Below are positions 59,738 to 62,569 of a stretch of DNA of 64,000 nt, piece by piece. A program made the position numbers and the translations under genes. Below the pieces are notes generated by a model, which searched no databases, had not been told where the DNA came from, and worked only from the letters and a program-made list of their open reading frames with translations. The stretch is from the NCBI RefSeq assembly GCF_003790525.1, contig NZ_CP033635.1; one strand, given 5' to 3'. Each line of letters begins with the position of its first letter. Positions within the stretch are counted from its first letter, which is position 1. The DNA is from Escherichia coli. Its GTDB lineage: Bacteria > Pseudomonadota > Gammaproteobacteria > Enterobacterales > Enterobacteriaceae.

Positions 59738-61123
59738 ATGAGTCACATCACAACGGAAGATCCAGCAACTTTACGCCTGCCCTTTAAAGAGAAACTCTCT
59801 TACGGTATTGGCGACCTGGCCTCTAACATCCTGCTGGATATTGGTACGCTTTATCTTTTGAAGTTTTATACCGACGTTCTGGGGCTGCCTGGCACCTATG
59901 GTGGCATTATCTTTTTGATTTCAAAATTCTTTACTGCGTTTACCGATATGGGAACAGGCATCATGCTGGATTCCCGACGCAAGATCGGCCCAAAAGGCAA
60001 GTTCCGTCCTTTTATTCTGTATGCGTCATTCCCGGTCACCCTGCTGGCGATCGCCAACTTTATCGGTACGCCGTTCGATGTCACCGGTAAAACGGTGATG
60101 GCCACCATCCTGTTTATGCTTTACGGACTGTTTTTCAGCATGATGAACTGCTCGTATGGCGCGATGGTCCCCGCTATTACTAAAAACCCCAACGAACGTG
60201 CATCGCTGGCAGCATGGCGTCAGGGTGGCGCTACATTAGGCCTGCTGCTGTGTACGGTGGGATTCGTGCCGGTTATGAATCTTATCGAAGGTAATCAGCA
60301 ACTTGGCTATATCTTCGCCGCCACGCTGTTTTCACTGTTCGGCCTGCTGTTTATGTGGATCTGCTACTCGGGCGTGAAAGAGCGTTATGTCGAAACCCAA
60401 CCTACCAATCCGGCGCAAAAGCCTGGCTTGTTGCAGTCTTTCCGCGCGATTGCTGGTAACCGCCCACTGTTCATTCTGTGTATTGCCAACCTCTGCACTT
60501 TAGGGGCGTTTAACGTCAAGCTCGCCATTCAGGTCTATTACACCCAGTACGTGCTCAACGATCCCATCCTGTTGTCATATATGGGATTTTTCAGCATGGG
60601 CTGTATTTTCATCGGCGTGTTCCTGATGCCCGGCGCAGTCAGACGTTTTGGTAAGAAGAAGGTCTATATCGGCGGCCTGCTGATTTGGGTGCTTGGCGAT
60701 CTGCTCAACTATTTCTTTGGCGGCGGTTCGGTCAGCTTCGTGGCGTTCTCCTGCCTGGCATTCTTCGGCTCAGCGTTTGTTAACAGCCTGAACTGGGCGC
60801 TGGTTTCCGACACCGTCGAGTACGGCGAGTGGCGCACCGGTGTGCGTTCGGAAGGTACGGTCTACACCGGTTTCACCTTCTTTCGCAAAGTATCTCAGGC
60901 GCTGGCAGGTTTCTTCCCAGGCTGGATGCTGACGCAAATCGGCTATGTGCCAAACGTCGCCCAGGCTGACCACACTATCGAAGGGTTGCGCCAACTGATC
61001 TTCATCTACCCAAGCGCACTGGCAGTAGTCACCATCGTGGCAATGGGTTGCTTCTACAGTCTGAACGAGAAGATGTACGTCCGCATTGTTGAAGAGATAG
61101 AAGCCCGTAAACGCACGGCGTAA
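59738..61123 (+). CDS. yihP: GPH-family sugar transporter YihP
   Basis: Start at MSHITTEDP; paralog of yihO. Confidence 0.9.
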   Translation: MSHITTEDPATLRLPFKEKLSYGIGDLASNILLDIGTLYLLKFYTDVLGLPGTYGGIIFLISKFFTAFTDMGTGIMLDSRRKIGPKGKFRPFILYASFPVTLLAIANFIGTPFDVTGKTVMATILFMLYGLFFSMMNCSYGAMVPAITKNPNERASLAAWRQGGATLGLLLCTVGFVPVMNLIEGNQQLGYIFAATLFSLFGLLFMWICYSGVKERYVETQPTNPAQKPGLLQSFRAIAGNRPLFILCIANLCTLGAFNVKLAIQVYYTQYVLNDPILLSYMGFFSMGCIFIGVFLMPGAVRRFGKKKVYIGGLLIWVLGDLLNYFFGGGSVSFVAFSCLAFFGSAFVNSLNWALVSDTVEYGEWRTGVRSEGTVYTGFTFFRKVSQALAGFFPGWMLTQIGYVPNVAQADHTIEGLRQLIFIYPSALAVVTIVAMGCFYSLNEKMYVRIVEEIEARKRTA

Positions 61124-61165
61124 TTATAATAAACAACGCCCTGCGGGGCGTTATAAGGAGTGATT

Positions 61166-62569
61166 ATGTCTGACCATAATCCACTGACATTAAGACTGAA
61201 TCTGCGGGAAAAAATCGCCTATGGTATGGGCGACGTCGGTTCGAATTTAATGCTCTGCATCGGTACTCTGTATCTCCTCAAATTTTATACCGATGAATTA
61301 GGGATGCCTGCTTACTATGGCGGGATTATCTTTCTGGTGGCGAAGTTTTTTACCGCATTTACCGATATGCTCACCGGATTTTTACTCGACTCGCGGAAAA
61401 ATATTGGGCCTAAAGGCAAATTTCGTCCCTTTATTTTATATGCAGCGGTTCCGGCGGCGTTAATTGCAACGCTCCAGTTTATCGCCACCACCTTTAGTTT
61501 GCCGGTTAAAACGACGATTGCCACCGCACTGTTTATGATGTTTGGACTTTCATACAGTCTGATGAACTGCTCGTATGGTGCGATGATCCCGGCCATTACC
61601 AAAAACCCCAATGAGCGCGCGCAGCTCGCGGCTTACCGCCAGGGTGGTGCAACCATAGGGCTATTGATTTGTACCGTGGCGTTTATTCCGTTGCAGTCGC
61701 TTTTTTCTGACTCAACCGTCGGTTATGCCTGTGCGGCACTGATGTTCTCCATTGGCGGCTTTATTTTTATGATGCTGTGCTACAGAGGCGTCAAAGAGCA
61801 TTATGTGGACACCACGCCAACCGGACATAAGGCCAGTATTCTCAAATCATTTTGCGCGATATTTCATAATCCACCTTTGCTGGTATTGTGCATTGCTAAC
61901 CTGTGTACTCTGGCGGCATTTAATATCAAACTGGCGATTCAGGTCTATTACACCCAGTATGTGCTGAATGATATTAATTTATTGTCGTGGATGGGATTTT
62001 TCAGTATGGGATGCATCCTCGTCGGCGTATTACTGGTGCCATTAACTGTAAAATGTTTTGGTAAAAAACAGGTTTATTTAGCTGGCATGGTGCTATGGGC
62101 GGTTGGTGATATCCTGAATTATTTCTGGGGAAGTAACTCTTTCACTTTCGTCATGTTCTCTTGTGTCGCCTTTTTTGGCACGGCCTTTGTAAACAGCCTG
62201 AACTGGGCACTGGTGCCAGATACCGTAGATTACGGTGAATGGAAAACCGGTATACGTGCCGAAGGTTCTGTTTATACCGGTTATACCTTCTTTCGTAAAA
62301 TTTCAGCCGCACTTGCTGGCTTCTTGCCAGGCATTATGCTGACGCAAATCGGTTATGTTCCCAACATCGCGCAAAGCGATGCGACATTACAGGGTTTGCG
62401 TCAGCTCATTTTTATCTGGCCTTGTGCGCTGGCAATGATTGCTGCATTGACGATGGGGTTCTTTTACACGCTCAATGAGAAACGGTTTGCACTGATTATT
62501 GAGGAAATTAACCAACGCAAAAATAAAGAAATTGAGACAGAAGAAAAAACGGCTTCCGTAACGTTATAA
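61166..62569 (+). CDS. yihO: GPH-family sulfoquinovose transporter YihO
   Basis: Start at MSDHNPLTL. Confidence 0.9.
   Translation: MSDHNPLTLRLNLREKIAYGMGDVGSNLMLCIGTLYLLKFYTDELGMPAYYGGIIFLVAKFFTAFTDMLTGFLLDSRKNIGPKGKFRPFILYAAVPAALIATLQFIATTFSLPVKTTIATALFMMFGLSYSLMNCSYGAMIPAITKNPNERAQLAAYRQGGATIGLLICTVAFIPLQSLFSDSTVGYACAALMFSIGGFIFMMLCYRGVKEHYVDTTPTGHKASILKSFCAIFHNPPLLVLCIANLCTLAAFNIKLAIQVYYTQYVLNDINLLSWMGFFSMGCILVGVLLVPLTVKCFGKKQVYLAGMVLWAVGDILNYFWGSNSFTFVMFSCVAFFGTAFVNSLNWALVPDTVDYGEWKTGIRAEGSVYTGYTFFRKISAALAGFLPGIMLTQIGYVPNIAQSDATLQGLRQLIFIWPCALAMIAALTMGFFYTLNEKRFALIIEEINQRKNKEIETEEKTASVTL

Follow-up and report, generated by a model that had tools for sequence, protein, structure and literature searches.

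The two adjacent genes lying at positions 59738-62569 of the window, that is, of the whole stretch of 64,000 nucleotides of Escherichia coli DNA analysed in this work, are yihP and yihO, a pair of tandem paralogs belonging to the sulfo-EMP cluster. Their duplication predates the radiation of the Enterobacterales, and since then strong purifying selection has maintained both copies, while no gene conversion has taken place between them. We consider it very probable that the pair, taken as a whole, is best explained by this ancient duplication together with the import and export roles attributed to the two proteins in the literature, and with the sulfonate-adapted pockets and the H+ coupling that a comparison with the melibiose symporter MelB would suggest. 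As far as gene identity and paralogy are concerned, no contradicting evidence was met. The existence of the pair, the degree of identity between its two members and the antiquity of the duplication are already known and ordinary; the minor refinements reported here concern the dating of the duplication, the exclusion of gene conversion, the higher rate at which YihO evolves, the comparison of the substrate pockets and the conserved hairpins located between the genes.

The locus and the family of its two transporters

The DNA between positions 59500 and 62800 is identical (100% DNA identity) to the chromosome of E. coli SMS-3-5 (NC_010498.1), and many other E. coli genomes are likewise identical to it; the gene names and limits used in this work are those of the RefSeq annotation of NC_010498.1, a record that is identical over the whole of this interval. 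A DNA search carried out with the yihP-yihO stretch revealed a query coverage of at least 80% in 3877 genomes. The first gene of the pair, yihP (59738..61123, + strand, 461 aa), codes for the presumed exporter of 2,3-dihydroxypropane-1-sulfonate (DHPS), and the second one, yihO (61166..62569, + strand, 467 aa), for the transporter that the literature describes as the importer of sulfoquinovose (SQ); RefSeq, Pfam MFS_2 and TIGR00792 all place both products among the GPH-family MFS transporters. An earlier note, written from the sequence alone, had given the pair limits that coincide exactly with the first base of yihP and the last base of yihO in RefSeq, and the two gene names it had used are also those of the annotation.

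The pair is flanked, in the same orientation, by the sulfoquinovosidase gene yihQ upstream (57656..59692, + strand), recognized both in the list of open reading frames and in the RefSeq annotation, and by the porin gene ompL downstream (62636..63328, + strand; RefSeq annotation). The sulfo-EMP cluster csqR-yihV / yihUTSRQPO-ompL is complete, its 10 genes being annotated in order, and yihU-yihT-yihS-yihR-yihQ-yihP-yihO-ompL form a run on the same strand. The location of the pair between yihQ and ompL, in the presence of csqR, yihV, yihU, yihT, yihS, yihR and yihQ, bears out the assignment to the sulfoquinovose cluster that had been made beforehand. The four genes from yihQ to ompL lie on one strand and are separated by 45 nt (yihQ-yihP), 42 nt (yihP-yihO) and 66 nt (yihO-ompL), and such short gaps are compatible with a co-transcription of the four genes.

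The open reading frames delimited by the program are slightly longer than the annotated yihP and yihO, starting at upstream GTG codons. The annotated ATG of each gene is preceded, at the right distance, by a Shine-Dalgarno sequence (SD), which is AGGGAG (59725-59730) in the case of yihP and AAGGAG (61155-61160) in the case of yihO. For yihP, we favour the ATG at 59738 over the GTG at 59705, because both the SD and a conserved hairpin, described below, are located upstream of the ATG.

The known counterpart of this locus is the pair formed by yihP (b3877) and yihO (b3876) of the sulfo-EMP cluster of E. coli K-12, attributed to Denger et al. 2014 as this work is cited in PMC6278857, PMC8006165 and PMC12608037. 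The two pairs share the same genes, the same gene order, the same neighbours (yihQ upstream and ompL downstream) and the same published identity of 65%, and nothing of substance differs between them; the window simply belongs to another strain, SMS-3-5, which carries the "long" cassette present in 3898 of the 5426 complete E. coli genomes. Elsewhere in the window, a PADLOC analysis of two strain-specific gene groups detected no complete known defence system.

Both proteins belong to the GPH (glycoside-pentoside-hexuronide:cation symporter) family (TC 2.A.2), in agreement with what had been proposed from the sequence. Indeed, the GPH:cation symporter profile TIGR00792 matched YihP with 536.5 bits and YihO with 529.4 bits (cutoff 231.35) over profile positions 1-437 of 437, and Pfam MFS_2 matched the two proteins, along the entire length of the model, with 262.6 and 264.3 bits, respectively (cutoff 27; E about 1e-78). 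Moreover, the homology to MelB, the member that serves the GPH family as its structural prototype, extends from end to end across all of the 12-helix MFS fold. With phmmer, the MelB structure 4m64_A aligned with residues 16-450 of YihP (E = 4.8e-35) and with residues 11-439 of YihO (E = 3.8e-40). Thus MelB, the melibiose/Na+ (H+, Li+) symporter of Salmonella and E. coli (PDB 4M64, 7L16, 8T60), is a full-length homologue over residues 11-450 approximately, and the solved relatives that can be recognized by sequence are the MelB structures only (E between 1e-35 and 1e-40, full length) plus, far more weakly, MFSD2A. A clean count of 12 helices in YihP and YihO was not obtained with a crude Kyte-Doolittle scan. 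The next-best NCBIfam models for both proteins are those of the GusB/UidB glucuronide symporters and of the YagG/YicJ-type symporters, which belong to the same family; the scores (about 290 bits for PRK09848 and about 230-245 bits for PRK09669) fall far short of the equivalog cutoffs (528 and 610 bits, respectively). Since YihP and YihO fall far under the equivalog cutoffs of the glucuronide, YagG and MelB subfamilies, we consider them a subfamily of their own.

Similarity between the paralogs and age of the duplication

The earlier note had described the two genes as sharing long identical peptide blocks, and had indicated a pairwise protein alignment as the way to check this, low identity being the outcome that would speak against it. 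The BLASTP alignment of YihP with YihO contains 297 identical residues out of 456 (65%), with 81% positives and 3 gaps (625 bits, E = 0), and is therefore not one of low identity; the same value of 65% has already been published (bioRxiv 10.1101/2021.11.10.468170), so that the pair was rightly presented as a known one. Both quoted blocks were found in both genes, on the + strand. The GPKGKFRPFILYA block lies at 59987..60025 in yihP and at 61406-61444 in yihO, where the same peptide is encoded with 31 of 39 nucleotides identical; the AIQVYYTQYVLND block lies at 60524..60562 in yihP and at 61934-61972 in yihO, again with the same peptide and with 35 of 39 nucleotides identical. Stretches of 8 or more consecutive identical residues number 11 altogether; the longest of them (KLAIQVYYTQYVLND) reaches 15 aa, and the longest run of identical nucleotides, 23 nt, falls inside the AIQVYYTQYVLND block. 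The in-register DNA identity of the two genes is 66%, distributed over the first, second and third codon positions as 72%, 84% and 42%, respectively. The repeat formed by the two genes is hence genuine and far beyond chance, being strong at the protein level only.

The comparison of yihP with yihO yielded a dN of about 0.25 and a dS of 2.1-3.3, which is saturated, with a dN/dS ratio of about 0.1. Where the two proteins have the same residue, their codons also agree with a frequency of 0.46, versus the 0.36 expected from codon usage alone.

The relatives of YihP were scanned in one genome per species, which provided 74 loci. The tandem order yihQ-yihP-yihO is retained in 62 of these 74 species loci, with ompL usually next, and the genera exhibiting it include Escherichia, Citrobacter, Salmonella, Enterobacter, Klebsiella, Kosakonia, Pantoea, Pectobacterium, Rahnella, Budvicia, Hafnia, Yersinia and Serratia, as well as an Anaerobiospirillum MAG. 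A neighbour-joining tree was constructed with the 139 extracted proteins from our own distance matrix. It revealed a YihP clade of 70 sequences, embedding 69 first-position genes and the single transporter of one locus (L060), and a YihO clade of 66 sequences, embedding 62 second-position genes and four others; a divergent GPH gene from Chimaeribacter is located outside both clades. The two genes are thus significantly alike over their full length, sit side by side on one strand and fall into two reciprocally monophyletic groups across species, as is to be found in tandem paralogs; their orthology to the named genes yihP and yihO is established by the 100% DNA identity to the annotated record and by the separation of the P and O groups in the tree.

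The mean identity between YihP and YihO is 0.677 within the same genome and 0.675 between different genomes; since the two values are equal, concerted evolution is absent. The two copies have not been conserved to the same extent. YihP is the more conserved one, with a mean identity among YihP sequences of 0.858 versus 0.819 among YihO sequences, and the E. coli proteins are 91-93% (YihP) and 77-80% (YihO) identical to their Citrobacter and Enterobacter orthologs.

It might be supposed that the identical blocks are the outcome of a recent duplication or of an ongoing gene conversion between the two genes (concerted evolution). The observations that would speak for this history are only the identical peptide runs of up to 15 aa and the 23-nt identical DNA run, and we consider it extremely improbable. 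Indeed, it is at odds with the 42% identity of the third codon positions and the dS of 2-3.3, with the 8 and 4 differences that the two quoted blocks exhibit over their 39 nucleotides, with the nearly coincident within- and between-genome identities reported above, and with the reciprocal monophyly of the P and O clades over at least 60 species. On the basis of codon-position identity, sliding windows, dN/dS, and within- versus between-genome identity, both gene conversion and a recent duplication were rejected. We give next to no credit, either, to the idea that either gene is a redundant copy undergoing decay, a duplicate with no function. In its favour, a ΔyihP mutant was without phenotype in an antibiotic-resistance screen in which the ΔyihO mutant had one (bioRxiv 10.1101/2021.11.10.468170); however, YihP, the copy without phenotype in that screen, is precisely the more conserved of the two, both open reading frames are intact in the window, dN/dS is about 0.1, and SQ induces both genes (PMC12608037). 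The decay of one copy was therefore rejected, since both copies are conserved, YihP even more so. Under an old duplication followed by purifying selection, the shared peptide blocks are conserved functional segments rather than newly copied DNA.

Substrate pockets and presumed division of labour

The family alignment of both clades was mapped onto the MelB numbering, and 19 positions of the pocket and of the cation site were compared. We take the sugar ligands of MelB to be K18, D19, Y120, D124, W128, R149, Q372, T373 and K377, and its cation ligands to be D55, N58, D59 and T121. The equivalents of Asp D59, Thr T373 and Lys K377 are conserved in YihP and YihO, whereas most of the other ligands are replaced. 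In both clades, (near-)invariant Asn residues occupy the positions of the two sugar-binding aspartates D19 and D124, and Ser, Gln and Gly, with the same degree of conservation, those of K18, R149 and W128, respectively; Thr takes the place of both Na+ ligands, D55 and N58, so that D55/N58/D59 of MelB correspond to Thr/Thr/Asp, and T121 is replaced by Ser. The V376/K377 pair corresponds to Arg-Lys, the Arg being an invariant extra residue preceding the Lys; these two residues are R383 and K384 in YihP and R377 and K378 in YihO.

The neutralization of the carboxylates that bind a neutral sugar, together with the gain of a positive charge, would fit anionic sulfonate substrates for both paralogs; judging from their homology to MelB, the pocket of each protein seems suited to such a negatively charged sulfonate, and the residue changes point to substrates, sulfonates, different from those of MelB. 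Since the D59-equivalent carboxylate, which is invariant, is the only one retained, it can be suggested that YihP and YihO probably couple transport to H+ rather than to Na+.

The same majority residue is found in the two clades at 17 of the 19 MelB positions, the exceptions being Y120 and Q372, where Phe/Tyr-type swaps occur. At a threshold of at least 90%, 20 columns of the alignment are clade-specific and conserved within each clade, and four of them are homologous to pocket positions: Y120 (Phe in YihP, Tyr in YihO), Q372 (Phe and Tyr, respectively), W116 (Tyr and Phe) and V375 (Phe and Ser). In the numbering of the two proteins, these positions correspond, in the same order, to F133, F379, Y129 and F382 of YihP and to Y130, Y373, F126 and S376 of YihO. 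If the substrates of the two proteins differ, this difference would rest on few such clade-specific swaps, and these four may be the best candidates for it. It is somewhat surprising that the two proteins share their pocket residues if a C6 sulfo-sugar enters the cell through one of them and a C3 sulfonate leaves it through the other.

The uptake of sulfoquinovose is a globally significant step of the sulfur cycle. The genes yihO, yihP and ompL are induced by SQ, and the cluster encodes the sulfo-EMP pathway (PMC12608037). A ΔyihO mutant does not grow on SQ, and for this reason YihO is regarded as the SQ importer (PMC6278857). YihP has been indicated as "most likely" the exporter of DHPS, by pathway logic only (PMC6278857); in the work that reports its 65% identity to YihO, it is described as "not experimentally characterized", and the same words are used there for the transport mechanism of YihO (bioRxiv 10.1101/2021.11.10.468170). 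Imported SQ glycosides are cleaved by the sulfoquinovosidase YihQ (PMC8006165). According to the scenario outlined in the literature, YihO would bring into the cell the SQ on which growth depends, and DHPS, the end product, would leave it through YihP. In this scenario, the role of YihP as DHPS exporter is an assumption.

The near-identity of the two pockets leaves room for a different role of YihP, namely that of an additional importer for compounds of the same class. It might bring in SQ glycosides, such as sulfoquinovosyl-glycerol, to be cleaved by the cytoplasmic YihQ, and DHPS would be exchanged out of the cell via YihO, via YihP or via some other carrier. We regard this as possible, yet rather unlikely. 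The agreement of the two clades at all but two of the MelB positions compared, the exceptions being limited to Phe/Tyr-type swaps, speaks in its favour, as does the location of yihP directly after yihQ in 62 of the 74 species; in addition, the activity of YihQ on imported SQ glycosides requires an importer for them (PMC8006165), and the role of YihP in the literature is a presumed one (bioRxiv 10.1101/2021.11.10.468170). On the other hand, the published pathway model gives the export of DHPS to YihP (PMC6278857), and the finding that a strain lacking only yihO cannot grow on free SQ (PMC6278857) fits either model without lending specific support to one of them. We can only tentatively entertain the idea that the import/export split is mistaken and that YihP may be a second importer, for example of SQ glycosides, or an SQ/DHPS exchanger; the hairpins located before the SDs of the two genes could set their relative expression. 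The assignment of SQ import to YihO and of presumed DHPS export to YihP is taken from the literature and forms part of the reading that we prefer.

Hairpins in the intercistronic gaps

Two G+C-rich stem-loops, each ending a few nucleotides before an SD, are located in the gaps that precede the two transporter genes. The one in the yihQ-yihP gap, GCCCGTGGG-GAAA-CTCACGGGC (59701..59722, + strand), lies just upstream of the yihP SD, and the one in the yihP-yihO gap, AACGCCC-TGCG-GGGCGTT (61135..61152, + strand), is followed after 2 nt by the start of the yihO SD. The yihP-yihO hairpin was found in at least 32 species. In the alignment of the gaps from those species, its 9-pair helix is paired at 91.7%, versus 40-53% when the partner strand is slid, and five pairs change on both sides; one of them, for instance, occurs as G-C in 19 of the sequences and as A-U in 12 others. 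The yihQ-yihP hairpin is also conserved across genera, with compensatory changes that are apparent from inspection by eye only. At the gathering thresholds, no Rfam family was detected in this region.

As no U-tract follows on the coding strand, neither hairpin is a canonical terminator. For the yihP-yihO hairpin, the possibility of an intrinsic terminator had been considered and was rejected, the pattern scan having flagged the minus strand only and the SD following immediately. The two hairpins might most simply be read as intercistronic structures that stabilize the mRNA or tune translation. Together with the loss of the acidic sugar ligands, the gain of an Arg and the Phe/Tyr swaps highlighted by the residue comparison, they could guide mutagenesis and expression studies on the two transporters.

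Divergence and distribution of the yihP-yihO pair

The comparison of the two adjacent paralogous GPH transporters of the sulfoquinovose cluster, encoded by yihP (59738-61123, + strand) and yihO (61166-62569, + strand), revealed that YihO evolves clearly faster than YihP. Indeed, the identity between the E. coli protein and its Citrobacter or Enterobacter counterpart is about 78% in the case of YihO and about 92% in that of YihP. In the neighbour-joining tree of the 139 proteins extracted from the loci found by scanning one genome per species (L002-L075), YihO from E. coli and E. 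whittamii, together with two others, is set apart on a long branch of its own.

As far as the distribution within E. coli is concerned, the yihP-yihO region (window 59500-62800 as the query) was present in only 3898 of the 5426 complete genomes (72%). This occurrence is in agreement with the published polymorphism of the yih cassette, which exists in a "long" and a "short" form, the latter consisting of yihTUVW only (PMC12608037).

The organization of the cluster varies in other species. The spacing between yihQ (the sulfoquinovosidase gene) and yihP is enlarged by about 1 kb of extra DNA at loci L034-L036, L038, L041, L042, L049, L051 and L069, and one transporter replaces the yihP/yihO pair at L060, L064 and L075. 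At the Yersinia, Serratia and Chimaeribacter loci (L054-L062, L065), neither yihS nor yihT lies in the 7-kb upstream flank of yihQ-P-O(-ompL); the second transporter gene of Chimaeribacter is only about 47% identical and is therefore a different GPH gene.

Hairpins in the intercistronic gaps

A G+C-rich hairpin occupies each of the yihQ-yihP (59701-59722) and yihP-yihO (61135-61152) gaps, the downstream Shine-Dalgarno sequence beginning 2-3 nt past its end. Covariation was found in the yihP-yihO hairpin over 32 species, and the yihQ-yihP hairpin, as judged by eye, displays conservation and compensatory changes. Both hairpins lack a U-tract, and neither matched an Rfam family.

Prophage, putative defence genes and other features of the window

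A P2-like prophage, whose insertion adjoins cpxP, covers positions 1-12631 and carries genes for terminase, portal, replication endonuclease, Cox and integrase (11651-12631). Its three cargo genes (2893-5931) may together represent an anti-phage module: the first product has a ParB-N domain and aligns with PD-Lambda-5_A and PDC-M38A over the N-terminal part of these models, the second is a hypothetical protein, and the third, a cytosine methyltransferase, was hit by the DruM and type II MTase models. It is also possible that a two-gene block on the - strand (33578-37721), flanked by fdhD and yiiG and presumably absent from K-12, is an uncharacterised defence island. Its 611-aa "ATP-binding protein" gave a weak PADLOC match, only to the N-terminal part of TmtA, and its 768-aa hypothetical protein gave none.

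Rfam matches, taken at the gathering level, are naRNA4, which is REP-derived (15549-15626, + strand), SECIS_3 (39643-39701, + strand) within the fdo gene that encodes the alpha subunit of formate dehydrogenase, and the ES036 sRNA (44787-44829, - strand). Lastly, the annotated partial pseudogene and transposase between fabY and yiiE (46288-48102) are a small IS remnant.
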